From: an uncultured Actinomycetota bacterium | GTDB lineage: Bacteria; Actinomycetota; Actinomycetes; Actinomycetales; CAWJMD01 | Length of the DNA: 64,000 bases | Direction of reading: 5' to 3' | NCBI GenBank assembly: GCA_963825505.1 | Contig: CAWGTL010000010.1 | Coordinates: 128,080 to 192,079, forward strand | Shown here: positions 40,147-64,000 of the stretch, piece after piece | Position numbering within the stretch: the stretch's first letter is position 1 | Layout: every line of letters begins with the position of its first letter | The notes under the pieces: model-generated | Told to the model about the DNA's origin: nothing | The model's input: only the letters and a program-made list of their open reading frames with translations | The model's database searches: none | Translations under genes and position numbers: made by a program

Positions 40147-41351
40147 GTGACACCGCCCCTCGGTCCGACGTCGGTCTACCTCGACCACGCGGCGACCACC
40201 CCGATCCACCCGCTCGCTCTGCACGCCCTCACCGAGGAGCTCGCGGTGGGCGGCAACGCCTCGTCGCTGCACACCTCGGGACGCCGCGCGCGCCGCGTGG
40301 TGGAGGAGTCGCGGGAGCGGCTCGCGGCCGCGGTCGGTGCCGCCCCGAACGAGGTGGTGCTCACCTCCGGCGGCACCGAGGCCGACAACCTCGCCACCAA
40401 GGGCCTGTACTGGCAGCGCCGCGCCGAGGACCCCCGGCGCCGCAAGGTGCTGCTCAGCGCGATCGAGCACCACGCCGTCGTCGACCCCGCGGTCTGGCTC
40501 GGCGAGCACGAGGACGCCGAGCTGGTCTGGCTGCCGGTCGACGCCGAGGGTCGCGTCGACGTCGACGTCCTGCGCACCGAGATCGCCAAGGACCCGGACG
40601 CCGTCGCGCTGGTGTCGGTGATGTGGGCGAACAACGAGGTCGGCACGGTGCAGCCGGTGGCGGAGGTCGTCGCGCTGTGCGCCGAGCACGGCATCCCCGT
40701 GCACGCCGACGCCGTCCAGGCGGTGGGCCACCTGCCCGTCGACTTCGCGGCCAGCGGGCTCGACGCGCTCACCCTGTCCGGCCACAAGATGGGCGGTCCG
40801 ATCGGCGTCGGCGCGCTGGTGCTGCGCAGCGGGCTCGACCTCGTGCCGGTGCTGCACGGCGGTGGCCAGGAGCGCGGCATCCGGTCGGGCACCCTCGACT
40901 CCCCGTCGGTCGTCGCGCTCGCGGTCGCCGCGGAGCTGGCCGTGCGTGACCGCGAGGACGAGGCGCTGCGGGTCGGCCGGCTGCGCGACGGCTGGTCGAG
41001 GGCGTGCTCGAGGCCGTTCCCGACGCCGTGCTGCGCGGCGCGGCCCCGGGTCCGGACCGCCTGCCGGGCAACGCGCACCTGACCTTCCCCGGCTGCGAGG
41101 GAGACTCGCTGCTCTACCTGCTCGACGCCCGCGGCATCGAGTGCTCCACCGGCTCGGCGTGCCAGGCCGGCGTGCCGCAGCCCAGCCACGTGCTCAGCGC
41201 GATGGGAATCCCCGACCCCGAGGCGCGCGGTGCCCTGCGGTTCAGCCTCGGCCGCACCACCACCGAGGTCGACGTCAAGGCCGTGGTCACCGAGATCGGC
41301 GCGGTCGTCGAGCGCGCCCGCGGTGCAGGTCTGGCCGCCCGCCTGCGATGA
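40147..41351 (+). CDS. iscS: Cysteine desulfurase (IscS/NifS-like, Rv3025c-like); frame break near 40990
   Basis: [20 protein letters not shown]-lysine [10 protein letters not shown] and RSGTL are in the first frame. [16 protein letters not shown] ... [11 protein letters not shown] ... [10 protein letters not shown] is in the frame of ORF 41004-41351. Confidence 0.88.
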
Positions 41352-42442
41352 AGGTGCTGGCCGCGATGAGCGGCGGCGTCGACTCCGCGGTGGCTGCAGC
41401 ACGTGCGGCCGACGCCGGCCACGACGTCGTCGGCGTGCACATGGCGCTGGCCCGCAACCCGGCCACCGGCCGCACCGGCGCCCGCGGCTGCTGCACGATC
41501 GAGGACGCCGGCGACGCACGTCGCGCGGCCGACGTGATCGGGATCCCGTTCTACGTCTGGGACCTCGCGGAGCAGTTCACCGAGGCCGTCGTCGACGACT
41601 TCGTCGAGCAGTACGCCGCCGGGCGCACCCCCAACCCGTGCGTGCGCTGCAACGAGCGGATCAAGTTCGCCGCGCTGCTCGACAAGGCGGTCGCGCTCGG
41701 CTTCGACGCCGTGGCCACCGGGCACTACGCGCGGGTCGAGCCGGGCGACCCGCCGCGGCTGCTGCGCGCCGCCGACGCCGCGAAGGACCAGTCCTACGTC
41801 CTGGCCGTGCTGCCGCCGCAGCGGCTGGCCCGGTCGCTCTTCCCGCTCGGCACGGCTGCCTCGAAGGACGAGGTGCGGGCCGAGGCGGCCCGACGCGGCC
41901 TGTCGGTGTCGGCCAAGCCCGACAGCCACGACATCTGCTTCATCCCCGACGGCGACACCCGCGGCTTCCTCGACGCCCGCATCCCGCGGCGGCCCGGCGC
42001 CGTGCTCGACCGCGACGGCCGAACCGTCGGCACCCACGACGGCGCCCAGGGGTACACGGTGGGCCAGCGCCGCGGGTTGCGGCTGGGGGACCCCGCAGGC
42101 GACGGCCGTCCCCGGTACGTGCTCGAGGTGTCGGTCGCCGACAACACGCTCACCGTCGGCCCCGCCGAGGCGCTCGCGGTCGGGACGGTGACGGCCGAGG
42201 AGGCCGTGGTCTGGCTCGACGCACCGCCGGCGCCCGGCAGCGCGCTGCACGCCCAGGTGCGGGCGCACGGCACCGCGGTCCCGTGCACGGTGGCGAGGGC
42301 CGACGACGCCGGCCTGCTGGTCGAGGTCGGGGGCGCGCTCACCGGCGTGAGCGCGGGTCAGACCGTGGTCCTCTACGACGGCGACCGCGTGGTCGGGAGC
42401 GCGACCATCACCGCCACCGCGGCGGCCGCCGTCCCCGCCTGA
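41348..42442 (+). CDS. mnmA: tRNA 2-thiouridine(34) synthase MnmA
   Basis: [31 protein letters not shown] and ATGHYAR. ATG overlaps the upstream stop (ATGA). Confidence 0.95.
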
Positions 42443-42464
42443 GGGCCTGCGTCCGGAGCGGCAG

Positions 42465-42506
42465 CGCGACAGGACGGAAACTTCCTGAGCCTGTGGGCTT
42501 GTCGCG
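42465..42506 (+). promoter_or_regulatory. Conserved upstream motif CGCGACAGGACGGAAACTTCC plus downstream inverted half TGTCGCG
   Basis: Gap-free alignment to the sites at 59214-59234 and 59707-59727, with 14 of 21 positions invariant. CGCGACA pairs with TGTCGCG and CAGGA pairs with TCCTG. Confidence 0.55.
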
Positions 42507-42533
42507 GTGCGCACCTCGCTGCACCGTGTGCTC

Positions 42534-43475
42534 ATGAGCACAGAGACCTTCCAGGGGGCGGACGTCCAGGCGCTGCGCGCGCTGCGGACGACGATGCAGG
42601 GCGTCGTGGCCGAGCTGCAGCGCTCGGCCGCCACGACGTCGTCGGCGCTGGACGCGCTGGCGTGGGCCGGCAACGACCAGTCGTCGTTCCGCACGGCGTG
42701 GACCGAGTGGTTCCGTCCGGTGATGCAGTCGGTGTCCGACGCCGTCACCCGCGCCGCCGACCAGGTGGAGGCCAACGCGGCCGACCAGGAGCGGGCCAGC
42801 GCCGACAACGGCACCGGTGGGACCGGCGGCACGACGGGCACGACCCTCGGCGCCCGCACCGACCCGGACCTCGGCGCGCTGAGCCGGCAGTACGAGTCCA
42901 ACGGCGACCCCGGCACGGTCTCCACCGGACGCGGCGACCGCGGCGGCGTCTCCTACGGGATGTACCAGTTCTCGTCCACCCAGGGCTCGGTGCAGGAGTT
43001 CGTCCGCGGGCTGCGCGACACGCACCCGGAGTACTACGCGGCCCTGAACGGGTTGCGCCCCGACACCCCCGAGTTCAACGCGGCCTGGCGCGAGCTCGCG
43101 CGCACCGACCCGACGGGCTTCGCCGCCGCGCAGCACGAGGCGATCGAGCGCACCCACTACACGCCGCAGCTCACGGCGACCGAGCAGCGGATCCCGGGCC
43201 TGGACTTCGAGCAGCGCTCGCCGGCACTGCGCGACGTGCTGTGGTCGACGTCGGTGCAGCACCGGCGGATGACCGACGACATCTTCGAGCGGGCGCTGGC
43301 CGGCCGCGACCCGGCGACGTTGACCGACGCCGAGATCATCCGGTCCGTCTACGCAGAGCGCGGGCGCGACAACGGGATGGCGTACTTCTCCGGCAGCAGC
43401 GCGGCCGTCAGGCGGGGTGTGGTCAACCGGTTCCGCAACGAGGAGCGCGACGCGCTGGGGATGCTCGGGCAGTAG
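42534..43475 (+). CDS. WXG100-like N-terminal domain fused to a lysozyme/chitosanase-fold (VgrG3-C-like) peptidoglycan hydrolase domain
   Basis: N-terminus is paralogous to the WXG100 protein at 60874 (LAWAGNDQSSFRTAW, ADQERAS). Gly/Thr linker. C-terminal YESNGDPGTVSTGRGDRGGVSYGMYQFSS and AYFSGSSAAVRRGVVNRFRNE. ATG 42534 preferred; GTG 42507 is possible. Confidence 0.65.
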   Translation: MSTETFQGADVQALRALRTTMQGVVAELQRSAATTSSALDALAWAGNDQSSFRTAWTEWFRPVMQSVSDAVTRAADQVEANAADQERASADNGTGGTGGTTGTTLGARTDPDLGALSRQYESNGDPGTVSTGRGDRGGVSYGMYQFSSTQGSVQEFVRGLRDTHPEYYAALNGLRPDTPEFNAAWRELARTDPTGFAAAQHEAIERTHYTPQLTATEQRIPGLDFEQRSPALRDVLWSTSVQHRRMTDDIFERALAGRDPATLTDAEIIRSVYAERGRDNGMAYFSGSSAAVRRGVVNRFRNEERDALGMLGQ

Positions 43476-43504
43476 GCCGCGTCGCAGGTGCAGCGGGCCG
43501 AGGG

Positions 43505-45664
43505 TCAGGAACGCGGCAGCTGCGCGGGCACGGCGTCGTCGACGCGCAGCCGCTGCAGGGACGACAGCCACTGCTCGCTCCACGCGACCACCGCGTCGGC
43601 GGCCATCGGACGGGCGACGTGCCAGCCCTGCGCCTGGTCGCAGCCCAGGGTGGTCAGGCGGTCGAGCACCTGGCCGGTCTCGACGCCCTCGGCGACCACG
43701 GTGAGGCCGAGAGCGTGCGCGAGCTCGGCGACCTTGGCGACGATCGCCTGGTCCATGTCGGAGTCGACGGCGCGGCTGACGAAGGAGCGGTCGAGCTTGA
43801 CCTCGTCGACGGGCAGGCTGCGCAGCATCAGCAGCGAGGACCAGCCGGTGCCGAAGTCGTCCATCGACAGCACGACGCCGAGGTTCTTGAGCTGCACCAT
43901 CGAGCGGCGGGCGCCGGCGAGGTCGTGGGCCAGGACCCGCTCGGTGACCTCGAGGGTCAGCATGGACGGCGGGATCGCGTGCCGGCGCAGGCGGGCGGCG
44001 ACGCCGTCGACGAAGTCGGGCTCGAGCAGGTCGCGCAGCGACACGTTGACGGCGACCGGCGCCTCCAGCCCCTGCCGCCGCCAGGCGGCGCACTGGGTGA
44101 GCGCCATCTCCAGGACGGCGTCGGTGACCTGCGGCATCAGCCCGGACTGCTCGGCGGCGGGGATGAACTCGTCCGGCGGGACGGTGACACCGGAGGGGTG
44201 CCGCCAGCGCACCAGCGCCTCGACGCCGACCAGCTGCCGCCCGGCGAGGTCGATCTTGGGCTGGTACTCCAGGTAGAGCTCCTCGAGCTCGAGCGCGCGA
44301 CGCAGCGACCCGAGGATGCCGAGCCGGGTCATCGAGACGGCGGCGGCGGTGGGGTCGAACACGGCGCAGCCGAGCTGCTCGCGCTTGGCGGTGTACATCG
44401 CGACGTCGGCGCGGGACAGCAGCGTCTCGAGGTCGAGGCCGTGCTCCGGCGCCATCGCGATGCCGACGCTGGCGTCGATGTCGATCAGCTGGCCGCCGTC
44501 GTGGGTGTACGGCTTTCGCAGCACCTCGCCGATCGCCTCGCCGGCGGCCACGGCGGCGGCCGCGTCCGGTACCTCGAGCAGGACGGTGAACTCGTCGCCG
44601 CCGAGGCGGGCGACGAGCTCGGCCGCGGGCAGGGCCTCGGTGAGCCGGGCCGCCACCTCCTGGAGCACCCGGTCGCCGGTGGCGTGGCCGAGGACGTCGT
44701 TGACCTCCTTGAACCGGTCGAGGTCGAGCAGCAGGATCGCGAGCTGGGGGACGTCGCCCTCGGCGAGGGTCCGCAGGGCCTTGCGGGTGGTGCCGTTGAA
44801 CTGCGACCGGTTGGCCAGGCCGGTGAGGTCGTCGTGCAGCGCGGCCCACTCGTTCTTCATCTGGCCGGCGGCGGACAGGTGGATGGCGGCGACCGGGATC
44901 ACGGCGAGGATCGTCATCAGCGGCGAGACGACCATCATCGCGGCGACCATCGGCCCCATCGCCAGCTGCGAGCCGTTGACGGAGATCTCGAACAGCAGGG
45001 TCGAGCGGAACTCGTTCCAGAACCGGGTGGCCGTCATCTGGCCGATGACGAAGCTGACGACCACCTCGTTGACCAGGAAGTACGCGACGGCCGCGAGCAG
45101 GCAGACCAGGAGCTCGAACGGCGACGACGGGTGCCACGGCTGGTCGAGCGAGGCGTGGACGCCGAACAGGTGCAGCACGGCGTCGGCGGCGAAGATCGAC
45201 AGGCCGTACTGGCCGGCGTTGAACGCGAGCCGGAACGGCGCGTGCCGGTCGAGCAGGCCGGACAGCAGCGTGGCGATCGTCAGCAGGATGACGGCCGGGA
45301 GGGCGTCGAACGCGATGAGCAGGGCGAAGGCGAAGGGGGTCGACCAGGACACGCCGGTGGGGTCCTTGAACCGGGTGCCGATCACCGGCAGCAGCTCGCC
45401 GCCCAGGATCAGGACGACGGCGGAGGCGAGGGCGACCCAGGTCGTGCCGGAGACCAGGCCGAACGAGGGCAGCGGGTCGGTGACGAGCTTCCAGGCCACG
45501 AGGGCGGCCGCCAGCGCCGGCGCGCCCCACACCGTCGCCCAGAAGGCGATGGGGTCGGGGGGCTGCGGCCGGTTCCGGGCACGGCTGGCGGCGACCAGCT
45601 CGTCCGTGGTGGCGGTCGACATCAACCTCTCCGGCTCGCGCGGGTGCGACCGGTCGGTCGGCAC
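43505..45664 (-). CDS. Membrane-bound GGDEF-EAL protein, paralogue of the 19839 gene
   Basis: N-terminal polytopic domain with FNAGQY. ARLGGDEFTVLL. EAL motifs VEALVRWRHP, VAVNVS, EVTER, DDFGTGWSSL, KLDRSF, AEGVETGQ and QGW. ATG 45622 is an alternative start. Confidence 0.9.
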   Translation of the reverse strand: MPTDRSHPREPERLMSTATTDELVAASRARNRPQPPDPIAFWATVWGAPALAAALVAWKLVTDPLPSFGLVSGTTWVALASAVVLILGGELLPVIGTRFKDPTGVSWSTPFAFALLIAFDALPAVILLTIATLLSGLLDRHAPFRLAFNAGQYGLSIFAADAVLHLFGVHASLDQPWHPSSPFELLVCLLAAVAYFLVNEVVVSFVIGQMTATRFWNEFRSTLLFEISVNGSQLAMGPMVAAMMVVSPLMTILAVIPVAAIHLSAAGQMKNEWAALHDDLTGLANRSQFNGTTRKALRTLAEGDVPQLAILLLDLDRFKEVNDVLGHATGDRVLQEVAARLTEALPAAELVARLGGDEFTVLLEVPDAAAAVAAGEAIGEVLRKPYTHDGGQLIDIDASVGIAMAPEHGLDLETLLSRADVAMYTAKREQLGCAVFDPTAAAVSMTRLGILGSLRRALELEELYLEYQPKIDLAGRQLVGVEALVRWRHPSGVTVPPDEFIPAAEQSGLMPQVTDAVLEMALTQCAAWRRQGLEAPVAVNVSLRDLLEPDFVDGVAARLRRHAIPPSMLTLEVTERVLAHDLAGARRSMVQLKNLGVVLSMDDFGTGWSSLLMLRSLPVDEVKLDRSFVSRAVDSDMDQAIVAKVAELAHALGLTVVAEGVETGQVLDRLTTLGCDQAQGWHVARPMAADAVVAWSEQWLSSLQRLRVDDAVPAQLPRS

Positions 45665-45701
45665 GTCCTCCTGTCGGACGAAACGGACCCCGACTTGAGC
45701 C

Positions 45702-49117
<3,416 letters not shown>

Positions 49118-49211
49118 GACGCCTCCCTCGGGTCCGGGTCGGGAAGAGGGCGGAGAGCCGATCGATGCTACGCCTGCGGAGGCGGCCCGGACCAGAGCCC
49201 GGACGGAGCGA

Positions 49212-50234
49212 CTAGGCCGCGGCCACCTCGGCGAGCGCGCCCGCGAGCTCGACGGTGCGCACCGTGAGGGCACGTGCCTGGCGCGGCGTGCAGCCGGCCA
49301 GCCCGCAGGCGGGGGTGACGACCACGTCGGCGAGCAGGTCGGCGCCGAGCCCGACGTCGCGCCACGGACGGTGCAGCCGGTCGACCAGCTCGGTCGTGGC
49401 GGGCAGCTCGCCGGACGTGGGCACCAGACCCGCCCACAGCCGGGTGCCCGCCTCGACCGCGACGGCCACCGACTCCCAGCCGCGCGACCCGAGCAGGGAG
49501 GTGTCGAGGGCGACGGCGTCGACGCCCGCGGCCCGCAGCAGCCCGACCGGCACGTCCGGCGCGCAGCAGTGCGCCACCACCGTGGCGACGTCGGCGGCCC
49601 GCAGCCGCTCGACCACGCGGGTGAGCGCCGCCTCGACCACGACGGCCTCCACCGCGGACAGCTTCCCGAACCCGCTCACCGTGGGCAGGCCGCCCCTCAG
49701 CACCGCCGGCAGCGACGGCTCGTCGAGCTGCACCACGACCTCGGCGCCCGGCACCAGCCGCCGCACGTCGCCCACGTGCTGCGCCAGTCCCTCGGCCAGC
49801 GAGTCGACCAGGTCGCGGACGGCGCCGGGGTCGGTGACCACCCGCTCGCCGCGGGTGAGCGACACGGTGGCGGCGAGCGTCCACGGCCCGCAGGCCTGCA
49901 CCTTGAGCGGACCGGACCAGCCGTCCGCCGCCTCGGCGAGCGAGTCGAGGTCGGCGTGCAGGAACGACCGGGCCCGCTCGAGGTCGCGTCCCGGCCGGTC
50001 CACGAACCGCCAGCCGCTGGGCTGCAGGTCGACCGGCATCTCGACGAGGAGGGCCGCCCCGCGCCCGGTGAGGTCGGCGCCGGGCCCGCGTCCGGGCAGC
50101 TCGGGCAGGTAGGGCATCCCCGGTGGTGCCCCGAGCTCGCCGATCACGGCCCTGGCCACCTCGAGCGGGTGGTCGCCCGGCTCGGCCGGCCACGACCCGA
50201 TCCCGGTGGCGGCGGTCGGGCTCGGCTCGGTCAC
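49212..50234 (-). CDS. Cobalamin-independent methionine synthase (MetE C-terminal)-like / URO-D-like protein (Rv3015c-like)
   Basis: 340 aa with [41 protein letters not shown] and TPACGLAG. Conserved neighbour of ligA in actinobacteria. Confidence 0.6.
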
Positions 50235-53768: not shown

Positions 53769-56123
53769 ATGGTCGGCGACAGGGCGTTCCTCGCCGCGCG
53801 ACGAGGTCACCTCGTCCCGCTCGCGGGTGTGCCTCTGGCCGCCGCCGCCCTGGTGCTCCGCGGCGCCGTGGAGGGCGAGCCGTACGCCCTGACCTCGGCC
53901 CTGGCGCTGGCAGGCTGCATCGCCGTGCTCGGTGGGGCCGCCGTGGCCGCGCTGGGCATCCGGTCCAGCGGTCTGCAGTGGTTCCGCATCCTGCTCGGGG
54001 CGGCCGCGATCGTCTTCGGCACCGGCCAGCTGCTGGTCGCCTGGCAGGTCCAGGGCGGCCACCCGGGGTACCCGACGTGGGGCGACCTGGTCTCCGGGTT
54101 CGCGGTGGTCCCGGCCGTGCTCGGCATCGCGCTGGTCCCGCGCCGGACCCGCGAGGCCGGCCGCGCGCTGCGCCTGGTGCTCGAGGGCCTGATGATGGGC
54201 AGCGCCGCCGGGCTGCTGCTGTGGCGCACGGTGCTGATGGACGTGGTCGACACGCCCGACGTCGAGCTCAGCTCGCTCGCGATGCTCGTGCTCGAGATCG
54301 TCGTCGCCTCGATCGCCGTCATCGCCGCCGTCCGCGAGCTCGACCGCGGGCTGGTGCTGCTGGCCGGCGGCTTCTCCCTCTACACCGTCTTCGACGTGGT
54401 CGCGGTCCACGCGGTCCTGCAGGGCCGGCCGTGGCCGTTCGTGAGCGCCCTGGCCGGCTGCGTGGTCTGGCCCTTCATCATCGCGGGTCTGAGCACGATC
54501 AGCGCCAGACCGCGCGAGATGCCCGAGCGCCGGCTCCCCGGTGCGGAGACCCGGCGGCAGGTCGTCGTGGGCGGCGCGTCCACGCTGATGCTCCTGGTGG
54601 CGCTGGTCTCGTTCGTCGACTCGCCGGGGCTCGACACCACCGGCCTGGTGCTCTCGATCGTCTTCGTCGTCGCCTTCGGCGCGTGCGAGCTCGTGCGCGC
54701 GCAGCAGAACCGTCGCCTGCTCGAGCGGCTCGCGGGACTCGCCGGTCGCGACCCGCTCACCGGCGTGCGCAACCGACGTGCGCTGTCCGAGCGCCTGGAC
54801 GAGCTCGCCGGGGGGCGGCCGTCGTCGCGGTCGAGCGACAGCGGCTGGTGGTTCCTCACCCTCGACCTGGACGGGTTCAAGGACGTCAACGACATGCTCG
54901 GCCACGAGACCGGCGACCTGGTGCTCCAGCTGGTCGCCAAGGCGCTCGAGGACCACGTGGGCAACGACGGTGCCGACGTCTTCCGCCTCGGTGGCGACGA
55001 GTTCGGGGTCCTGGCCTCCGGCACCGAGACCGAGGTGCGGGAGCTGGCCGAGTCGCTGCTCGTGGCGGTCTCGCGCAGCGTGCGCGGCGCCCCGGGCGTC
55101 GCGCGCCTCGACGTCTCGGTGAGCATCGGCGCCGACCGGCTCCGGCTCGGCACCGGCACCCGCGCCACCCAGGTGGGCATCGCGGCCTCCGGACAGGCGA
55201 TGCGCCAGGCCAAGCGGGACGGGCGCGGCCGCGTCGTCGTGTTCAGCGAGCCGCTCGCCGCCCGCAGCCGCCGCCGCCAGCTGATGGAGCGCCAGCTGCG
55301 CGACACCATCGCGGCAGGAGGCGTCGACGTGCACTTCCAGCCGGTCTACGACGTGTGGACGGGCTACCTCACCGGCGTCGAGGCGCTGGCCCGCTGGAAC
55401 GACCCCGTCCTCGGCGACGTCAGCCCGGGCGAGTTCATCGAGGTCGCGGAGGAGTCGGGCCTCATCGGCGAGATGGGCCAGCAGATCATGCGCAAGGCGC
55501 TGCGGCTGATGGTGGGCTGCGGCGGCGTGGGCCGCGGCGTCCGGGTCGCGGTCAACGTCTCGACGATCCAGCTGCGCGACCCGTCCTTCGTCGGCTTCGT
55601 CAAGCAGGCGCTCGTGGAGGTCGGCGTCGAGCCGGCCACGCTCGTGCTCGAGGTGACCGAGTCGGTCTTCGTCCGCCCGGACGACCCGGCCGTGCAGTCG
55701 ATCACGCGTCTGGCCGAGCACGGGTGCACCGTCGCCATGGACGACTTCGGCTCGGGCTACTCCTCGCTCGGGTACCTCAGCCGGCTGCCCGTGAAGATCC
55801 TCAAGGCCGACATGTCGCTGACGCGGCAGCTGCACGAGCCGCGGACGCTCGCGATCGGGCGGACCATCGTCCAGCTGGCGGCGGGTCTCGGCCTCGACGT
55901 CGTCTTCGAGGGCGTCGCCACCCCGCAGCAGGAGGCCCTCGTGCGCGGCCTCGGCGCCCAGTACGTGCAGGGCTGGTTGTACGCCCGGGCGATGCCCGTC
56001 GAGGAGCTCGTCGCCGAGATGGACCGCAGCTGCGCCCCTCTGCCCGGCGGGACCACCGCGCTGCCCGCCGCTCCGCGCCCCCGGCGCCCGGCCGACGGCC
56101 AGCGCTGGGCCAGCGCCGGCTGA
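53769..56123 (+). CDS. Membrane-bound GGDEF-EAL protein (third in the window)
   Basis: Polytopic N-terminus. FRLGGDEFGVLA. EAL domain with VEALARWNDP, VAVNVS, EVTES and DDFGSGYSSL, but KADMSL and FEGVATPQ in place of the usual KIDxSF and AEGVET. Confidence 0.88.
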   Translation: MVGDRAFLAARRGHLVPLAGVPLAAAALVLRGAVEGEPYALTSALALAGCIAVLGGAAVAALGIRSSGLQWFRILLGAAAIVFGTGQLLVAWQVQGGHPGYPTWGDLVSGFAVVPAVLGIALVPRRTREAGRALRLVLEGLMMGSAAGLLLWRTVLMDVVDTPDVELSSLAMLVLEIVVASIAVIAAVRELDRGLVLLAGGFSLYTVFDVVAVHAVLQGRPWPFVSALAGCVVWPFIIAGLSTISARPREMPERRLPGAETRRQVVVGGASTLMLLVALVSFVDSPGLDTTGLVLSIVFVVAFGACELVRAQQNRRLLERLAGLAGRDPLTGVRNRRALSERLDELAGGRPSSRSSDSGWWFLTLDLDGFKDVNDMLGHETGDLVLQLVAKALEDHVGNDGADVFRLGGDEFGVLASGTETEVRELAESLLVAVSRSVRGAPGVARLDVSVSIGADRLRLGTGTRATQVGIAASGQAMRQAKRDGRGRVVVFSEPLAARSRRRQLMERQLRDTIAAGGVDVHFQPVYDVWTGYLTGVEALARWNDPVLGDVSPGEFIEVAEESGLIGEMGQQIMRKALRLMVGCGGVGRGVRVAVNVSTIQLRDPSFVGFVKQALVEVGVEPATLVLEVTESVFVRPDDPAVQSITRLAEHGCTVAMDDFGSGYSSLGYLSRLPVKILKADMSLTRQLHEPRTLAIGRTIVQLAAGLGLDVVFEGVATPQQEALVRGLGAQYVQGWLYARAMPVEELVAEMDRSCAPLPGGTTALPAAPRPRRPADGQRWASAG

Positions 56124-58363: not shown

Positions 58364-59200
58364 ATGCTGAGGGTGACGCTGCGGGGGGCGGGGGTGCCGG
58401 CCGCCGTGCTGGGCACGGGGGACCGGCTGCTGTTCGGCCGGGCACCGGGTGAGCGCCTCGACGGGCTCGACCCCGACTCCCAGCTGAGGCTCACCACGCT
58501 CGCGCTGCCCCGCACCGCGCCGCACGTCTCGCGGGTGGTCGGCGAGGTCGTCGTGGGCGAGGAGATGGTGCGGCTGCGCTGGCACGGGTCGACCGAGGCC
58601 CAGCTGTCGAGCCTGTTCGACGCCCCAGGCGGCGCGCGCAGGGTCGCTCTGGCGCAGGGGATGTCGGCCTTCCTCGACGAGGGCGAGAACCACCTGCTGC
58701 TGCTGCGCGGCCGGGAGACCGCGCAGGGCCGGTACACCGACCTCGTCCTGGTGGTCGTCGTCGACGACGTGGAGCAGGAGCAGGCGACCGAGCCCGGCGA
58801 GGAGCCCTCGGCCGACCTCGACGCCGCTCCCACGGCCCCCGCCCCCCGGCTGGAACCCCGGTCGCGGGAGTGGTTCGTCGCGCTGGCGCTGGCGGAGCCG
58901 TGGCTCACGGGGGCCGACGACTACCCCCGCCCGCCCTCGAACCGCGAGGTGTACGAACGGGTCCGACGCTGGCACGGCTACGCCTGGAACCTCGACCGCG
59001 CCCAGCGGGTCGACGACGCCATCCGGGTCGTGGCCCGGATGGCGTTCGGGCCGCAGGACGACCCGTTCACCTCCACCGCCGGCCGGGTCCAGAACGTGCG
59101 GTTCGCGGTCGGCCGCCGCGCGGCGGAGGTGCGGCTGGTCACGGTCGACCAGCTCGAGCAGGTCGAGGCCGAGGCGGCCGCCCGTCCGGTCCGCCACTGA
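58364..59200 (+). CDS. Hypothetical protein with an FHA-like N-terminal region
   Basis: GDRLLFGRAPGERLD ... ALPRTAPHVSRVVGEVVV ... WHGSTEAQL resembles the FHA core (GR ... SR.H ... GS). Acidic linker. C-terminal domain not recognised. Confidence 0.45.
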   Translation: MLRVTLRGAGVPAAVLGTGDRLLFGRAPGERLDGLDPDSQLRLTTLALPRTAPHVSRVVGEVVVGEEMVRLRWHGSTEAQLSSLFDAPGGARRVALAQGMSAFLDEGENHLLLLRGRETAQGRYTDLVLVVVVDDVEQEQATEPGEEPSADLDAAPTAPAPRLEPRSREWFVALALAEPWLTGADDYPRPPSNREVYERVRRWHGYAWNLDRAQRVDDAIRVVARMAFGPQDDPFTSTAGRVQNVRFAVGRRAAEVRLVTVDQLEQVEAEAAARPVRH

Positions 59201-59213
59201 CGAGATCCGGTTC

Positions 59214-59253
59214 GGCGACAGGGAGGAACGTTCCGGCGCGCTCGCCCTGTCGC
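59214..59253 (+). promoter_or_regulatory. Conserved upstream motif GGCGACAGGGAGGAACGTTCC plus inverted half CCCTGTCGC
   Basis: Shares the G.GACAG-N3-GGAA-N2-TTCC core with the sites at 42465 and 59707. GCGACAGGG pairs with CCCTGTCGC (9 bp). The inner GGAACGTTCC is itself a perfect palindrome. Confidence 0.55.
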
Positions 59254-59313
59254 GCCGCCCTCGCGCCGTGCGAGGGTCGGCGGACGCCAGCAGAGACGAC
59301 ACCGGGAGGGGCC

Positions 59314-59604
59314 ATGGTCGACAGGAGCCAGTTCTACGGGATGGACACCGAGAGCTCGCGCGAGGGAGCCCGGCAGCTCGACTCCGGCGCGACCGAGGTG
59401 CAGGGCATGCTCGATCTCGCCAACCAGGCGATCCAGGCGCTGCGCAGCTCGCCGTACGGCGCTGCCGGCCCCGGCTTCGCTCAGTGGGACCAGACCTGGA
59501 CCGGCGAGGTCAACCCCCAGCTGCAGCGCGCCGTCGAGAACCTGCGCAGCAACGCCTCCGAGCTGAACCGGCGCGCGCAGATGCAGGAGGAGGCCAGCGC
59601 CTGA
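59314..59604 (+). CDS. WXG100-like small helical protein (96 aa)
   Basis: GGGAGGGG SD. W-x-G at QTWTGEV. Predicted helix-turn-helix length. C-terminal QMQEEASA is similar to the DDQERASS of the 60874 protein. Confidence 0.7.
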   Translation: MVDRSQFYGMDTESSREGARQLDSGATEVQGMLDLANQAIQALRSSPYGAAGPGFAQWDQTWTGEVNPQLQRAVENLRSNASELNRRAQMQEEASA

Positions 59605-59627
59605 CGCGCCTCCACCGCTCTCCCCTT

Positions 59628-59657
59628 CAGCCGCCGTCCCGACCGGGACGGCGGCTG
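59628..59657 (+). terminator. Perfect 13-bp stem hairpin CAGCCGCCGTCCC-GACC-GGGACGGCGGCTG after the first WXG gene
   Basis: Begins 24 nt after the stop codon. Followed by a CTGCTGCTGTGCTGC tract with only scattered T and no clean U-run. Confidence 0.55.
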
Positions 59658-59706
59658 CTGCTGTGCTGCAACGGTTCTTGCTCTGGCACCGGGTCGGGCG
59701 CCGATC

Positions 59707-59727
59707 CGGGACAGACCGGAACCTTCC
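59707..59727 (+). promoter_or_regulatory. Third copy of the conserved motif: CGGGACAGACCGGAACCTTCC
   Basis: Same strand and order as the other two copies, 98 nt upstream of ATG 59825. A CCTGTC inverted half follows at 59760-59765. Confidence 0.5.
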
Positions 59728-59824
59728 ACCCCTCCCGCTCTGGCGCGGGACCGCCCCGACCTGTCAGCGTCTGCGGCACAGGCAGTTTCGAGGCTCGGTA
59801 CGCCGGGCGAGGGGAGGTGGGACG

Positions 59825-60799
59825 ATGAGCGGCTTCCAGGGATCCGACGTCGACGCACTCGACCAGATCGCGGGCTGGACCAAGAAGGCCGCGGACTTCG
59901 CCACGCTCGTGGCCGGCGTCCTGGAGGCGGTCGCCACCGCTCTCGAGGCGTTCTCGTGGACCGGCTGGGCCGCCGCCTTCGCCAGGTACCTGCGCACCGT
60001 CGTGATCCCGTGGGTCAGGTCGGCGGCGAAGATGCTCAGCTCTGCCTCGCAGTTCCTGGCGCTGATGAGCGGCAAGCAGAAGGACGCCAGTGGCGACACC
60101 CCGCAGGTGTCCACCGGCAGCACTCCGGGCTACCAGGTGCCCAGGCTCCCGACCGTGAGCACGGGCGACGCCCCGCAGGTCGCGGCGATCACGATCACCT
60201 TCGGCTCGCCGGGCGCGAGCGCTGGGTCCACCGGCGTCCAGGTGACCCCACCCTCGCTCACCGGCACCGGCCCGGTCGTCCCCGGCCAGGTGGTCGGGAG
60301 CACCGGGGCGGGCGCCACCGTCACCGTCCCGGCCGCCGCGCTGACAGGTGCGCTGACAGGCGGGGGGCTGGCTCGTGGGGGGCTGGCCGGCGGCGCACTC
60401 ACGGGTGCGGCGCTCGCCCGCGAGACCACCGGCGGCCTGTCCTCCGGCGGCGGGTCGGGCTCCGGCCTCGGCTACCGGACCCCCTCCGGCGCGGGCGCCC
60501 TCACGGGCAGCGGCGACGGCGTCGCCGACACCGCCCTCGGCGGCGGGACCGGTGGTGGGAACGGCACCTCGTCCGGCCTGTTCACCGCCGGCTCGGGCGC
60601 GTCGGGCTCGTTCGACCGGACCCTGCCCGCGACCCCGTCCGACCAGGGAGACGGCCCCGGCGCCGCGGTCCTGGCGGCACCCCTCGGCGTGCTCGGCCTC
60701 GGAGCGGCGGCGCTGTCCGCCCACGCGGCCCGCACGGCGACCCAGACCCCGGAGTCCGACGGAGGGAGCGTCCAGGACGACGGCAGCACGACCGCATGA
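59825..60799 (+). CDS. WXG-like N-terminal domain protein with a Gly/Thr-rich repeat region and a C-terminal TM anchor
   Basis: MSGFQGSDVDALDQIAGW... with FSWTGWAAAF (W-x-G) and QKDAS at the end of the domain. ALTGALTGGGLARGGLAGGALTGAAL repeats. C-terminal AAVLAAPLGVLGLGAAALSA. Confidence 0.65.
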   Translation: MSGFQGSDVDALDQIAGWTKKAADFATLVAGVLEAVATALEAFSWTGWAAAFARYLRTVVIPWVRSAAKMLSSASQFLALMSGKQKDASGDTPQVSTGSTPGYQVPRLPTVSTGDAPQVAAITITFGSPGASAGSTGVQVTPPSLTGTGPVVPGQVVGSTGAGATVTVPAAALTGALTGGGLARGGLAGGALTGAALARETTGGLSSGGGSGSGLGYRTPSGAGALTGSGDGVADTALGGGTGGGNGTSSGLFTAGSGASGSFDRTLPATPSDQGDGPGAAVLAAPLGVLGLGAAALSAHAARTATQTPESDGGSVQDDGSTTA

Positions 60800-60873
60800 C
60801 GCACGCGCAGTAGCTCGACGCCCGTTTCCACATCCGGTTCCACCAGACACCCACGCACAGAAGGAGAACCACC

Positions 60874-61140
60874 ATGAGCACCGTCCTCGGGATGGACATC
60901 AACGCCGCACGCGACCTCGTCCGCGTGATGAGCTCCGACGCCGACACGATCACCCAGCTCTCCGGCCGGCTGACCAACCAGCTGGAGCAGACCACCTGGT
61001 TCGGCCCGGACGCCAACGCCTTCCGGTCGGCCTGGCAGGGCGAGTACGTGCCCGCCCTGCAGCGGATCGTCCAGGCCCTGCAGGAGAACTCCCAGGCGCT
61101 GTCGGCCCAGGCGGACGACCAGGAGCGCGCGTCGTCCTGA
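60874..61140 (+). CDS. WXG100 family (EsxA/EsxB-like) protein, 88 aa
   Basis: AAGGAGAA SD. TTWFGPDANAFRSAWQGEY contains W-x-G at mid-length. Sits directly upstream of the FtsK-like ATPase gene. Confidence 0.85.
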   Translation: MSTVLGMDINAARDLVRVMSSDADTITQLSGRLTNQLEQTTWFGPDANAFRSAWQGEYVPALQRIVQALQENSQALSAQADDQERASS

Positions 61141-61245
61141 TCGGCCGCTGAACCCGCCGACCGGCGGCGGACCCGCCCTCGCGGCGGCCGCCGCCGGCCG
61201 GCACGTCCGGCCCCGTCTCTCACGCACTCGTCCAGGAGGTCCGCC

Positions 61246-64000
61246 GTGTGGCGACTGAGCATCGTGCCCACCGAGGGCACGGGCCTGACCGGCGCCGACG
61301 TCGTCGTGCACGCCGAGCCGGGCGCCCGCGTGGTCGACCTGGCGGGTGTGCTGGCCGAGCACCTCGGCGGAGGGGCCGCCGCCGCCCCGCCGCTCCTGGT
61401 CCCGCTCGTGGACGGCGGGGTGTGGCCGGCCGACCGGCGGCTGTTCGACTGCGGCCTGCGCCAGGGGGACGTGCTCGAGGTGACCTCCGTGCCGGCCTCG
61501 TGGCGCACGACGCCGGCGCGTACCCGGCGCACCACCGCCACCGTGCGGGTCGTGGCCGGACCCGACGCCGGGAAGAGCGTCCGGGTCGACGGCGACAGCC
61601 TCACCGTCGGACGCAGCCGCGAGTGCACGGTGCGGCTGTCGGACCCGCTCGTCAGCCGGGTGCACACCCGCGTCCTGCTCAGCGGCGGGCCGGTGGTCAG
61701 CGACGAGGGCTCTGCCCACGGCACCCGGGTCGGTGGCCACGAGGTGGTGCGCCCGCAGGCGGTCGGGTGGGGGGAGCGCGTCGACCTCGGCGGCAGCGCC
61801 TTCGTGGTCGAGCCGCCCGACGGCGGCGCGGCCCGGGCCGACGACGGCGTCGCCGTCCTGCGCCCGCCGCGCTTCGGCGAGGCGGTCGACGAGCTCGAGC
61901 TCGACACCCCGACCCCACCCAGCCGCCCGAAGCCGCAGCCGCCCCCGTGGGCGATGCTCGCCATGCCGGTGGTGCTCGGCGGCGCGCTGTTCCTCTCCGG
62001 CCGCAGCACCTACGCGCTGGTGTTCGTCGTCGGCTGGCCGGTGATCATGCTCATCACCTGGCTGACCGCCCGGCGCCAGCAGCGCAAGGAGTTCGAGCGC
62101 GAGCTCGCGGCCTGGCGGGAGGACATGCAGGCCGTGCTCGACCAGCTCGACCACGCTGCGACCGTCCAGCGCGAGCACGCCGAGGACGACGACCCCGACG
62201 TCGACGTCGTGCGGTCCCGGGTGGTCTCGCGCGACCGCCGGCTCTGGGTGCGCGGTCCCGACGACGACGACTTCGGCCTGGTCCGCGTGGGCCGCGGCGG
62301 GGTGCCCGCCAAGGTCACCGGCAAGCGGTCCTCCAGCGGGGACCGCGAGGTGCTGCTCGAGGCCCGCGAGCTGCTGTCGTCGCGCACCGTCCTGGAGCAG
62401 ATGCCGGTGACCGTGCCGGTGCTCGAGCACGGCGTGGTCGCGGTGACCGGCGACCCGGACGAGCTCGACGCCGCCGTCCGCGCGATGGTGCTGCGGCTCG
62501 CCGGAGGCCACTCACCGGCCGAGGTGCAGCTCGTCGCGCTGCTCGGCCGCGGCCGCGAGCACCTGGAGAGCTGGCTGCGCTGGCTGCCGCACTGCGCACC
62601 GCGCAGCGGCGGGGTCGCGCCGGTGGCGGTGGGTCCCGTCGAGGCCACGCCTCTGCTCGAGGTGCTCGCGGCGGAGGGCGCCGGACGCGGGCGGACGGTC
62701 TGCCTGGTCGACGCCGGCTGCGGTCTGCCGCGGCGCGTGGTCGAGGCCGCAGCGGCCGCAGGGCCCGAGCAGGGCCTGCACCTGATCTGGTTCGGGACGG
62801 CGGCCGACGAGATCCCCTCCCGCACAGCCGTGCACGTCGACCTCCGGGCGAAGCGGGTCGAGCAGGCCGGTCGACGCGGACGGGTGGAGCTCGACAGCAC
62901 CGACGCGGTCGGGCTCGTCCCCGCCTGGCACGCCGCGCGCGGCATGACCGGCTACCAGGACGCCGTCGCGCTCGTGCAGCCCGACTCGGCCCTGCCCGAG
63001 CAGGTGCGCCTGCCGGACCTCGGCACCGACCTGCGCAGCTGCGACGACGTCGACACCGTGCTCGGCCGCTGGACCGCGGCGCGCGGCCTGCGGGCCCAGA
63101 TCGGTTCCGGCGTCGACGGTGTCGTCACGCTCGACCTGCGCGAGGACGGCCCGCACGGTCTGGTCGCGGGGACGACCGGCTCGGGCAAGTCCGAGCTCCT
63201 GCAGACCCTGATCAGCTCGCTCGCGGTGAACAACCCGCCGACGCGGATCACCTTCCTGCTGGTCGACTACAAGGGCGGCGCGGCGTTCCGCGAGTGCGCC
63301 GACCTGCCCCACACGGTCGGGTACATCACCGACCTCACGCCGGCACTGGTGCAACGGGCGCTGGTGTCGCTGCACGCCGAGCTGACCCACCGCGAGGGCC
63401 TGCTCGCCGAGCACGGCGCCAAGGACCTGGTCGCGCTCGAGCGCGACCACCCGGAGGTGGCTCCACCCAGCCTGCTCATCTGCGTGGACGAGTTCGCCGC
63501 GCTCACCGCCGAGGTGCCGGACTTCGTCGACGGGATGGTGTCGATCGCCCAGCGGGGCCGCTCGCTCGGGATGCACATGCTGCTCGCCACGCAGCGCCCG
63601 GCCGGCGTCGTGACGCCCCAGATCAAGGCGAACACCGACCTGCGCATCGCCCTGCGGGTGGCCTCCGGCGACGACAGCACCGACGTCATCGACGCGCCCG
63701 ACGCGGCCCAGCTCTCCCGCCGCACGCCCGGACGCGCCTGGGTGCGGCGCACGGGTCACGGCACCACCGAGCTGGTCCAGGTGGCGTGGGTCGGCGGGCG
63801 CGAGCCCCTGCACGACGCCGCCGCCACCGTGCGGGTGGCACCGTTCTCGGCGCGCGACCTCGGCGGCGACGGCCAGGTGGCCGGCGAGCGCGTGCACCCG
63901 CGCTCGGACCTCGACCGCCTCGTCGGGACGACCACGGCCGCCTTCGTGCGGTCGGGCCTGCCCCAGCCGCGCCGGCCCTGGCTTCCGGCGCTCGGCCAGG
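61246..64000 (+). CDS. Type VII secretion FtsK/SpoIIIE-family ATPase (EssC/EccC-like) with N-terminal beta-grasp-like and FHA domains; 3' end outside the window
   Basis: CAGGAGG SD with GTG 61246. The frame stays open to the window end (checked codon by codon). FHA domain: LTVGRSRECTVRLSDPLVSRVHTRVLL...SDEGSAHGTRVGG. Two TM segments (AMLAMPVVLGGALFL, ALVFVVGWPVIMLITWL). ATPase motifs: Walker A GTTGSGKSE, Walker B LLICVDEFAAL, and LLATQRP. Confidence 0.85.
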   Translation, partial: MWRLSIVPTEGTGLTGADVVVHAEPGARVVDLAGVLAEHLGGGAAAAPPLLVPLVDGGVWPADRRLFDCGLRQGDVLEVTSVPASWRTTPARTRRTTATVRVVAGPDAGKSVRVDGDSLTVGRSRECTVRLSDPLVSRVHTRVLLSGGPVVSDEGSAHGTRVGGHEVVRPQAVGWGERVDLGGSAFVVEPPDGGAARADDGVAVLRPPRFGEAVDELELDTPTPPSRPKPQPPPWAMLAMPVVLGGALFLSGRSTYALVFVVGWPVIMLITWLTARRQQRKEFERELAAWREDMQAVLDQLDHAATVQREHAEDDDPDVDVVRSRVVSRDRRLWVRGPDDDDFGLVRVGRGGVPAKVTGKRSSSGDREVLLEARELLSSRTVLEQMPVTVPVLEHGVVAVTGDPDELDAAVRAMVLRLAGGHSPAEVQLVALLGRGREHLESWLRWLPHCAPRSGGVAPVAVGPVEATPLLEVLAAEGAGRGRTVCLVDAGCGLPRRVVEAAAAAGPEQGLHLIWFGTAADEIPSRTAVHVDLRAKRVEQAGRRGRVELDSTDAVGLVPAWHAARGMTGYQDAVALVQPDSALPEQVRLPDLGTDLRSCDDVDTVLGRWTAARGLRAQIGSGVDGVVTLDLREDGPHGLVAGTTGSGKSELLQTLISSLAVNNPPTRITFLLVDYKGGAAFRECADLPHTVGYITDLTPALVQRALVSLHAELTHREGLLAEHGAKDLVALERDHPEVAPPSLLICVDEFAALTAEVPDFVDGMVSIAQRGRSLGMHMLLATQRPAGVVTPQIKANTDLRIALRVASGDDSTDVIDAPDAAQLSRRTPGRAWVRRTGHGTTELVQVAWVGGREPLHDAAATVRVAPFSARDLGGDGQVAGERVHPRSDLDRLVGTTTAAFVRSGLPQPRRPWLPALGQ

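Follow-up and report, generated by a model that had tools for sequence, protein, structure and literature searches.

The open reading frame (ORF) at 42534-43475 of the DNA stretch analysed here (64,000 nt of contig CAWGTL010000010.1 from an uncultured Actinomycetota bacterium, called the window throughout) encodes a fusion of two domains, a WXG100-fold hairpin at the N-terminus and a muramidase module of the VgrG3 family at the C-terminus. Judging by these domains and by the genes found with them, the fusion is probably a peptidoglycan hydrolase exported by a type VII secretion system (T7SS), whatever its target may be. The longer claim, that the exported enzyme serves as a bacteriolytic effector against neighbouring bacteria, is one that we put forward tentatively and stop just short of backing. 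By its domain plan the protein belongs to the polymorphic-effector architecture class known as "T7SS (WXG)".

The ORF is complete, running on the plus strand from ATG 42534 to TGA 43475 (313 aa + stop). The GC content of its three codon positions is 0.67, 0.55 and 0.98, the window as a whole having 74.5%; the third-position value of 0.98 is a true coding signature and the ORF is real. An alternative in-frame GTG lies upstream at 42507, but the N-termini of the orthologues (MSTETFQGAD / MTTNLRGAD) coincide with ATG 42534 and not with the GTG. No Sec/Tat-like signal peptide and no hydrophobic or membrane segment was seen by inspection of the 313-aa fusion. The two domains are joined by a linker (aa 92-111) that is disordered in the AlphaFold2 (AF2) model and differs in length and composition among orthologues, and the Gly/Thr linker reported in the initial annotation, NGTGGTGGTTGTT, is found at residues 92-104.

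The C-terminal domain matches PF21277 (T6SS_VgrG3-like_C) at residues 113-304, covering profile positions 1-183 of 183 with 181.6 bits (cut-off 27) and E=1.9e-53. It also matches the C-terminal domain structures of Vibrio cholerae VgrG3, 4NOO and 4NSO, in sequence (E~3e-30, 35-36% identity). When the AF2 model, computed from 15 orthologues, was compared to known structures by Foldseek, 4NSO_A was matched with E=5.4e-7, a template modelling (TM) score, normalised on the target, of 0.75 and 36% identity. The next match after 4NSO/4NOO was the Bacillus subtilis chitosanase 7C6C of glycoside hydrolase family 46 (GH46), with E=0.2, TM 0.34-0.42 and 18% identity. In the model, helices of this domain run on to aa 311. 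Glu121 (in YES) and Asp135 (in GDRGG) are invariant in the orthologue alignment (A1, 15 sequences including the window protein), and their aligned counterparts in 4NOO are the Glu of KYES and the Asp of NGDYGG, respectively. We take the two residues to correspond to the catalytic E827 and D842 of VgrG3; a paper stating this was not found in our literature search. On these comparisons the C-terminal domain is a VgrG3-family muramidase module with its predicted catalytic pair intact. The chitosanase/lysozyme-like fold of VgrG3 type that the initial annotation had proposed, and had suggested checking by superposition on the VgrG3 domain, is borne out both by profile and by structure.

The N-terminal domain can be linked to the small WXG proteins of a T7SS-like locus in the same window. 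Over residues 5-90 it can be aligned gaplessly with the 88-aa protein (WXG88) encoded at 60874-61140, with 26 of 86 residues identical (30%; BLASTP, E=1e-10) and with the W-x-G, FRxAW and DQERAS strings in register, in agreement with the paralogy claimed earlier. Common to the fusion and both small WXG proteins of the locus are G8-x-D10, WxG, F52, W56, P62 and A82-x-x-Q85-[E/D]-x-x-S89. The AF2 model of the domain, with a predicted local distance difference test (pLDDT) value of 88.7, consists of two helices (8/11-41 and 47-91) with W44-A-G46 in the loop 42-46. Foldseek against the PDB returned, as its first 47 matches, exclusively Esx, WXG100 or PE-PPE proteins or the WXG100-like Helicobacter pylori HP0062; most of these have TM 0.7-0.85 and a root-mean-square deviation of 1.2-2 Å, while a minority of chains have TM 0.3-0.5. 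The full-length model gave the WXG100-type list again, ranked after VgrG3. As modelled, the N-terminal domain is a WXG100-fold hairpin, and the fold comparison settles it. The initial annotation had named both WXG100 and LXG as profiles to be searched. The WXG100 profiles match below their cut-offs (scores are given further below) with the fold comparison in support of this family, and LXG identity was rejected: no LXG family of Pfam matched at E<=1, and the tag is a 90-aa two-helix hairpin, not one of ~200 aa. W44 and G46 are invariant in the 15 orthologues and also in 59 longer relatives with other payloads. The fusions, WXG88 and the 96-aa WXG protein keep A82, Q85 and S89 with little or no variation. 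In the small WXG proteins this motif forms the extreme C-terminus, which makes it a candidate for recognition or for contact with a partner.

The locus in question occupies 58364-64000 (Table 1), placing the module 15-17 kb from the fusion gene. Its ATPase gene follows from about 61141 on, 17.7 kb downstream of the fusion gene on the same contig and adjoining the paralogous WXG proteins, so that the secretion locus reported earlier at ~17 kb stands. The ATPase matches TIGR03928 (EssC, E=1.6e-103), TIGR03924 (EccCa, E=2.3e-97) and Pfam FHA and FtsK_SpoIIIE; EssC/EccC-type ATPases of relatives have ~1,480 aa. The 88-aa protein, as the closest paralogue of the fusion's N-terminal domain, is a candidate secretion partner. 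The gene order of the module recurs in Serinibacter arcticus (L090) and Occultella aeris (L091) as well as on other contigs carrying an identical 88-aa protein (L081-L083). In the first two species the counterparts of the 278-aa gene (282 and 284 aa) and of the 324-aa gene (536 and 395 aa) stand at the same positions, and the 324-aa gene (59825-60799) is also a called gene in L081. Serinibacter arcticus has both the module (L090) and a fusion orthologue (L011), and together with the window lineage this indicates that the tag and this type of T7SS co-occur in at least two lineages.

The Micrococcales modules have a common order: a protein of ~280 aa, a WXG protein of ~91-96 aa, a WXG-like protein of ~324-536 aa with a low-complexity tail, a WXG protein of 88-89 aa and the FHA-EssC/EccC ATPase, whose FHA domain gives it a likeness to firmicute EssC rather than to mycobacterial EccC. 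After the ATPase gene there is a membrane-anchored protein of 500-1,100 aa, which reads as a beta-propeller in the window lineage and has an fn3 match in Occultella. MoxR/DUF58/transglutaminase genes then follow in the window lineage and in Serinibacter. No recognisable EccB/D/E, MycP or EssA/B was found in the Micrococcales module.

In order to define the family of the tag, we searched with the N-domain alignment against protein clusters at 50% identity. A word-indexed profile search returned small WXG proteins alone and missed the fusions, and an exhaustive profile search was used instead. It gave 4,140 clusters at E<=1e-3 and 1,058 at E<=1e-10. Among the best 150 clusters, 87 are stand-alone proteins (87-99 aa) and 59 are longer (194-528 aa), with the domain N-terminal and at ~1-90 in nearly all. 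PF06013 matches 20 of the 59 longer relatives at E<=1e-3 (best 2e-7). The payloads behind the tag include VgrG3C (4 proteins), CHAP (3), Lipase_3 and other alpha/beta hydrolases, Endonuclea_NS_2, Peptidase_C2 (calpain-type), Exo_endo_phos (EEP nuclease/phosphatase), a C39-like module and numerous membrane-like tails rich in Gly/Ala. WXG-CHAP occurs, for instance, in Actinomyces bouchesdurhonensis, and WXG-calpain in Arthrobacter and Paenarthrobacter. A WXG-Endonuclea_NS_2 protein of 272 aa (L094 8001-9226) has, overlapping its stop, a downstream ORF of 136 aa without a Pfam match. This is an orphan locus with no T7SS gene near, and by its gene arrangement it looks like a toxin-immunity layout.

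The WXG-CHAP genes stand directly after FHA-EccC and WXG88 genes, both in Actinomyces and in a second lineage (L092). This ties the tag physically to this type of ATPase. The Actinomyces ATPase preceding WXG-CHAP is 32% identical to the window ATPase; the gene before it encodes 256 aa, for which sequence similarity to the 278-aa protein was not detected. As a separate observation, the operon (L088/L089 2297-11009, L092 1-4746) reads: 256-aa protein, FHA-EccC, WXG88, WXG-CHAP and a WXG-tagged protein of 264-295 aa, which is Gly-rich in L088. Small ORFs of 197 and 175 aa (L088) or 222 aa (L092) lie at its end. This Actinomyces-type T7SS operon therefore encodes a tandem of three proteins with the WXG tag, including a peptidoglycan hydrolase. 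We also noted two unannotated groups that recur behind the WXG tag. One is a C-terminal module of ~170 aa with the end ...ADFS..(8-12)..DPGGAF.AA..AV.DY[IV]P (P0183, P0187, P0198, P0202, P0209, P0260 and others), and the other consists of Gly/Ala-zipper membrane-like tails (among proteins P0125-P0269). Such recurrent C-terminal modules are candidates for new T7SS toxin domains.

The fusion as a whole is matched at full length (98-100% query coverage) by 16 protein clusters, the named ones being from Pedococcus, Janibacter and Knoellia. A profile search added an orthologue in Nakamurella lactea. A motif-limited scan of 185,579 species genomes, with the best 80 matches considered, added a metagenome-assembled genome (MAG) of an uncultured actinomycetote with 98% identity, Actinotalea ferrariae (gene truncated by the end of its contig), Pseudactinotalea and Serinibacter. 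About eight actinobacterial fusion loci are among these best 80 matches, with one each from Janibacter and Knoellia. NCBI names of the orthologues vary between "WXG100 family type VII secretion target" (Pedococcus), "VgrG-related protein" and "hypothetical protein". The position of the gene at mnmA/ligA is kept within the genus only (L001, and L085 with 82% identity). It stands between the pyr operon and nusB/efp in Janibacter, Knoellia and relatives (Intrasporangiaceae), and at other positions again in Serinibacter and Nakamurella.

The initial annotation had likened the mnmA-ligA gap to the backbone position at which Mycobacterium tuberculosis carries esxQ/esxR/esxS. The M. tuberculosis ligA is presumably Rv3014c. 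We set window positions 41351-47867 against rv3014c-rv3025c, where the gene order from trmU on is trmU(=mnmA, rv3024c)-rv3023c-pe29-ppe48-ppe47-esxS-esxR-pe27A-ppe46-esxQ-lpqA (PMC8872769). The location between mnmA and ligA is as described, and esx genes do stand beside trmU; the meaning given to it, a shared backbone position, is not upheld, as the location is kept at genus level only. Because the other actinobacterial families carry the fusion gene elsewhere, the parallel is probably a coincidence, and we rejected as unsupported the idea that the position is ancestral and common with the esxQRS locus.

Outside the WXG proteins, the muramidase module is found on a variety of other domains. 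In Lysobacter capsici (P0079) PF21277 stands with PG_binding_1 and a C-terminal XVIPCD, as in effectors of the type IV secretion system (T4SS), and in P0037 it is preceded by PAAR, a domain of type VI secretion systems (T6SS). Cassettes of these two types are 42-54% identical to the C-terminal domain of the fusion. The module is joined to LysM in myxobacteria and Caulobacter and to a plain signal peptide in planctomycetes. This variety of delivery and binding domains suggests a mobile lytic cassette that is joined to whichever delivery domain the host uses. In a side observation, the LysM-VgrG3C protein of Archangium gephyra (L006 9392-11308) was seen to have an extra C-terminal C39-like module (...PWYSQFVGGNGFTPS...C...DHFVxITG...), which occurs alone behind the WXG tag in the actinobacterial P0145, P0196 and P0199. 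With C39-like and VgrG3C modules in both myxobacteria and actinobacteria, two lytic cassettes would be common to the two phyla.

The domain families, the architecture class and T7SS-delivered enzymes acting on the cell wall are all known. Actinobacterial proteins with an N-terminal WXG domain and variable toxin payloads were catalogued by Zhang, Iyer and Aravind (Biol Direct 2012, PMC3482391). The only glycosidase toxin in that catalogue, Tox-Glucosaminidase, is placed under T6SS/PVC and not T7SS, and a VgrG3-type payload is unlisted (PMC3482391). The fusion has the plan of their "T7SS (WXG)" class, a WXG hairpin of ~90 aa, a linker and a variable C-terminal enzyme. In that class, however, the immunity gene is directly downstream, as may be the case for the 136-aa ORF of the WXG-nuclease relative, whereas the fusion and its orthologues are without one. 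Compared to V. cholerae VgrG3 (PF21277; 4NOO/4NSO), the catalytic module is homologous, the Glu and Asp of YES and GDxGG are kept and hydrolysis of peptidoglycan glycan strands, as by VgrG3, is presumed, but the fusion has no gp27/gp5 spike, no T6SS and no adjacent TsiV3-like gene, carries a WXG100 tag instead and belongs to a monoderm actinobacterial host. The X-T4SS (P0079) and PAAR (P0037) proteins have the same cassette with a C-terminal XVIPCD or an N-terminal PAAR in diderm hosts, and the fusion would be its T7SS/WXG100 version.

Among T7SS substrates, EatA of Mycobacterium abscessus was described in 2026 as a GH183 endo-D-arabinanase and ESX-4-dependent cell-wall toxin with TapA1/A2 and the lipoprotein inhibitor EatI; the accompanying survey predicts NlpC/P60 payloads as well (PMC13444075). 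Like the fusion, EatA is a glycoside hydrolase of an actinobacterium that is linked to a T7SS, has a helical targeting domain at its N-terminus and has a cell-wall polysaccharide as target. Its helical domain is long and LXG-like, however, and it has two Tap genes and a lipoprotein immunity gene adjacent to it and arabinan as substrate, whereas the fusion has a minimal 90-aa hairpin, no such adjacent genes, peptidoglycan as predicted substrate and a host outside Mycobacteriales. TelC, a lipid II phosphatase with an LXG domain that belongs to the T7SSb of Streptococcus intermedius and goes with TipC (PMC5555719, PMC6193138), is likewise exported by a T7SS and acts on the cell-wall pathway outside a Gram-positive membrane. 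It differs in having LXG and not WXG100, in being a phosphatase and not a glycan hydrolase, in its membrane-anchored immunity protein and in its host phylum, Bacillota. A peptidoglycan hydrolase tied to a T7SS without an immunity protein, in a thick-walled monoderm as well, is EssH, which has a Sec signal for its export and is not known to carry a WXG domain, with essH in the ess cluster. EssH is a CHAP enzyme required for secretion by the Staphylococcus aureus T7SSb (PMC13059805; Bobrovskyy et al. 2018). It is a CHAP amidase/peptidase and the fusion a predicted muramidase, whose gene is 15-17 kb off the T7SS module. The Actinomyces WXG-CHAP genes are operon members, much as essH lies in the ess cluster.

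The initial annotation had regarded the fusion as not belonging to a described effector class. This goes too far, since the WXG-payload class has been known since 2012 (PMC3482391), TelC and EatA are precedents and the Pedococcus orthologue already bears a T7SS name at NCBI. No description of a WXG100 tag combined with a VgrG3-type payload was found in the searchable literature, and this particular pair appears undescribed. If confirmed, it would be the first T7SS-delivered muramidase, and cell-wall attack or remodelling by T7SS would reach Micrococcales and Nakamurellales, beyond Bacillota and Mycobacteriales. One cassette is thus found with the delivery domains of four export routes, VgrG and PAAR (T6SS), XVIPCD (T4SS), LysM (presumably Sec) and WXG100 (T7SS), a clear case of effector modules exchanged across secretion systems and phyla. 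The analysis also outlines a large and mostly unannotated WXG-tag family (the 4,140 clusters) and a conserved FHA-EssC-type module in non-mycobacterial actinobacteria.

We propose the following course of events. The N-terminal hairpin would pair with a small WXG100 protein of the locus (88 or 96 aa) to form a four-helix bundle, and either the partner's free C-terminal A..Q[E/D]..S tail or the bundle itself would be recognised by the FHA-EssC/EccC-type ATPase. The complex would then be exported through the cytoplasmic membrane. On the far side the C-terminal domain would be expected, from its family, to cut peptidoglycan glycan strands like the C-terminal domain of V. cholerae VgrG3. In the least certain step, which gives it the role that we hold the likeliest, the enzyme would act as a bacteriolytic effector against neighbouring bacteria, with the producer guarded by non-adjacent means such as a resistant wall chemistry or an unlinked inhibitor.

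A number of observations weigh against this proposal. In the N-terminal domain, PF06013 (WXG100) scores 13.4 bits (E=0.09) on the full protein and 17.2 bits (E=0.0062) on the domain alone, for a cut-off of 27.3, and TIGR03930 scores 15.2 bits (E=0.018) for a cut-off of 44.85. The profile of the N-terminal domain found only non-significant Esx matches in the PDB sequences (EsxA 2VRZ, E=0.39); the MotA/ExbB protein that came first in this search was discarded as spurious. The 88-aa protein of the locus is likewise below both cut-offs (PF06013 25.0 bits, TIGR03930 33.8 bits). Taken with the PF06013 matches among the longer relatives, these scores suggest a divergent WXG100 subfamily that is linked to the known one transitively. 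The A82..S89 tail motif is internal and not C-terminal in the fusion. In the C-terminal domain the loop 123-140, which carries Asp135, is modelled at low confidence. Other points concern gene context. On neither side of the fusion gene is there an immunity candidate or a Lap/Tap-like accessory gene, be it in the window, in L001 and L085, or in Janibacter, Knoellia, Serinibacter and Nakamurella. To our knowledge, the well-studied peptidoglycan or envelope effectors (VgrG3/TsiV3, EatA/EatI, TelC/TipC) all have an adjacent immunity gene. The fusion gene is single-copy and syntenic within the genus. The WXG-fused C-terminal domains form one clade of a neighbour-joining tree (no bootstrap), with branching that is roughly taxonomic. 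The single copy, the synteny and the clade would suit an enzyme retained by a lineage better than a mobile weapon.

The clade of WXG-fused domains adjoins myxobacterial LysM proteins, which are 54-58% identical, and its unity suggests a single old fusion event. With regard to immunity, the initial annotation had described mnmA upstream, a convergent GGDEF-EAL gene downstream and no adjacent immunity ORF, and each of these was found so. The stop of mnmA is at 42442, leaving a gap of 91 nt (42443-42533), and the convergent MASE9-GGDEF-EAL gene at 43505-45664 (-) leaves one of 29 nt (43476-43504), so there is no room for a small flanking ORF. The other genera are no different: a conserved neighbour or a small secreted or lipoprotein ORF by the fusion gene was found in none of the seven other loci. 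When the ORFs within 2.5 kb of PF21277 genes were clustered for 80 loci, no neighbour family extended across phyla and synteny was lineage-specific only. A predicted lipoprotein of ~250 aa does lie directly 3' of the LysM-VgrG3C gene in 13 Caulobacter loci (e.g. L021 10659-11420). It is an immunity candidate for its own family branch, and no homologue of it was found in the 64-kb window. The missing gene would mean either that Gram-positive producers tolerate their own secreted muramidase or that the enzyme serves the secretion machine. It is chiefly in this lack of an adjacent immunity gene that the fusion is unusual, as the Actinomyces WXG-CHAP is in its place inside a T7SS operon.

The second of these options is the most serious rival, in our view possible though on the unlikely side: a T7SS-exported muramidase that opens the producer's own wall locally for the apparatus or for bulky substrates, in the manner of EssH and with a FlgJ-like self-export. 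Local and regulated activity on the own wall would make an immunity protein unnecessary, which fits the absence of an immunity gene in every context of the fusion, unlike its WXG-nuclease relative. The single copy, the genus-level synteny among housekeeping genes and the single clade of WXG-fused domains count on the same side. So does the WXG-CHAP in the operon behind FHA-EccC and WXG88, which suggests that a wall hydrolase is needed repeatedly and that different catalytic domains fill this need, although such in-operon placement in Actinomyces is equally typical of T7SS toxins. A precedent is given by EssH, needed for S. aureus T7SSb secretion and for EsaA assembly (PMC13059805; PMC9333272). 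Against a self-directed role, the gene seems patchy, given the ~8 actinobacterial loci among the best 80 matches of the motif-limited scan, and the hydrolase cassette is used elsewhere as a weapon. EssH itself is said to be exported by its Sec signal and not by the T7SS. Attack on neighbouring bacteria is in turn favoured by the polymorphic tag family, by the cassette's service as a weapon with T4SS and T6SS and by the examples of TelC and EatA, just as the lack of immunity genes, the housekeeping synteny, the in-operon WXG-CHAP and the EssH precedent favour the self-directed role. An extended form of the latter, which strikes us as rather unlikely, is that WXG-tagged hydrolases are not weapons but self-exported wall-opening parts of a distinct FHA-EssC-type T7SS of non-mycobacterial Actinomycetota. 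Such a machine would use a muramidase in Micrococcales and Nakamurella and CHAP in Actinomyces, that is, non-orthologous catalytic domains behind one tag with a FlgJ-like logic, and this dedicated role would explain the missing immunity genes.

Export by the T7SS is common to these readings, and a further one retains it with another substrate: the enzyme could hit a polymer other than peptidoglycan (chitosan or chitin, or the producer's own exopolysaccharide), for nutrition or as an antifungal GH46-like chitosanase. The host lineage near Actinotalea, which we take to be one of polysaccharide-degrading soil actinobacteria, would suit such a role, and the fold is chitosanase-like, with 7C6C as the third Foldseek match. 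In addition, VgrG3 has residues conserved with lysozyme-like chitosanases (PMC12663445). The 7C6C match is nevertheless weak compared to that of VgrG3, and homologues commonly carry the peptidoglycan-binding LysM and PG_binding_1 domains; we regard this substrate as improbable. It is about as improbable that the fusion is no T7SS substrate at all, its hairpin being a dimerisation or regulatory coiled coil and its release depending on a holin-like route, lysis or moonlighting export, or the whole being a domesticated endolysin. The sub-threshold WXG100 scores, the 17 kb to the T7SS locus and a Holin-X gene (PF07332, E=2.6e-35) adjoining the Nakamurella orthologue would agree with this, but the gapless paralogy to the locus WXG proteins includes the WxG turn and the tail motif, the Foldseek list of the domain consists essentially of T7SS substrates exclusively, the same domain heads proteins encoded right behind an EccC gene, and phage genes were not seen nearby. 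The Holin-X gene is divergently oriented to the orthologue (Nakamurella lactea, L087 7338-9077), and the adjacency could be accidental or could point to release with the help of a holin. Two origins were rejected: a T6SS relic or VgrG3-type evolved spike, as Pfam finds PF21277 and a weak WXG100 match alone with no gp27/gp5 VgrG core and the host is an actinobacterium, and a phage endolysin, as phage genes are missing from the vicinity and the gene keeps its synteny with housekeeping genes around it.

Table 1 Parts of the fusion gene and genes of the T7SS-like module, in window coordinates.
Feature	Position	Strand	Basis
WXG100 helix-turn-helix domain, aa 1-91	42534..42806	+	BLASTP, AF2, Foldseek
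W44-A45-G46, WxG motif, inter-helix turn	42663..42671	+	orthologue alignment, AF2 loop 42-46
A82-x-x-Q85-[E/D]-x-x-S89 (AADQERAS), end of helix 2	42777..42800	+	alignments
Flexible Gly/Thr/Ala-rich linker, aa 92-111	42807..42866	+	AF2 pLDDT <50
VgrG3-like C-terminal glycoside hydrolase (predicted muramidase, chitosanase fold), aa 113-304, Pfam envelope	42870..43445	+	PF21277
Glu121 codon, predicted catalytic acid (YES motif)	42894..42896	+	invariant; aligns with 4NOO
Asp135 codon, predicted catalytic base (GRGDRGG motif)	42936..42938	+	invariant; aligns with 4NOO
278-aa protein, first gene of the module, no family match	58364..59200	+	
96-aa WXG100-like protein, ends ...MQEEASA	59314..59604	+	TIGR03930 E=5.6e-5; Pfam WXG100 E=0.0022
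324-aa protein with WXG-like N-terminus (SWTGW, by eye) and Gly/Ser/Thr-rich tail	59825..60799	+	no family match
88-aa WXG100 protein	60874..61140	+	TIGR03930 E=2.8e-8; Pfam WXG100 E=2.3e-5
FHA-containing FtsK/SpoIIIE ATPase, EssC/EccC type	61141..64000, past window end	+	TIGR03928, TIGR03924, Pfam

No match was obtained in a scan for consensus promoters and terminators at 42300-43700, and no obvious Shine-Dalgarno sequence precedes ATG 42534. Beyond the MASE9-GGDEF-EAL gene lies ligA, at 45702-47867 (-). The convergence of the MASE9-GGDEF-EAL and muramidase genes, with 29 nt between the stops, is kept in L001 and L085. A second GGDEF-EAL gene, at 53769-56123 (+), is less than 10 kb from the one at 43505-45664 (-). 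Between ligA and a MetE-like gene there is a 1.33-kb insertion at 47894-49225 (ORF 47897-49273, minus strand). It is absent in the near-identical MAG L001, where the flanks have 94.6% nucleotide identity, and in the related genome L085, and the genes there are ~30-50 bp apart. The insertion has no terminal repeats. Its ORF (~410-458 aa) is coding-like, with a third-position GC of 0.93, and was matched by nothing in Pfam, NCBIfam, PADLOC or the PDB; we regard it as a strain-specific gene without family assignment. Upstream of mnmA, an IscS/NifS-like cysteine desulfurase is split into two frames, 40147-41082 and 41004-41351, and is intact with 402 aa in L085. Comparable breaks occur in several genes of L001 and L081-L083, the EccC-type ATPase among them. 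The split desulfurase and these breaks are likely frameshift errors of long-read MAGs and not pseudogenes.

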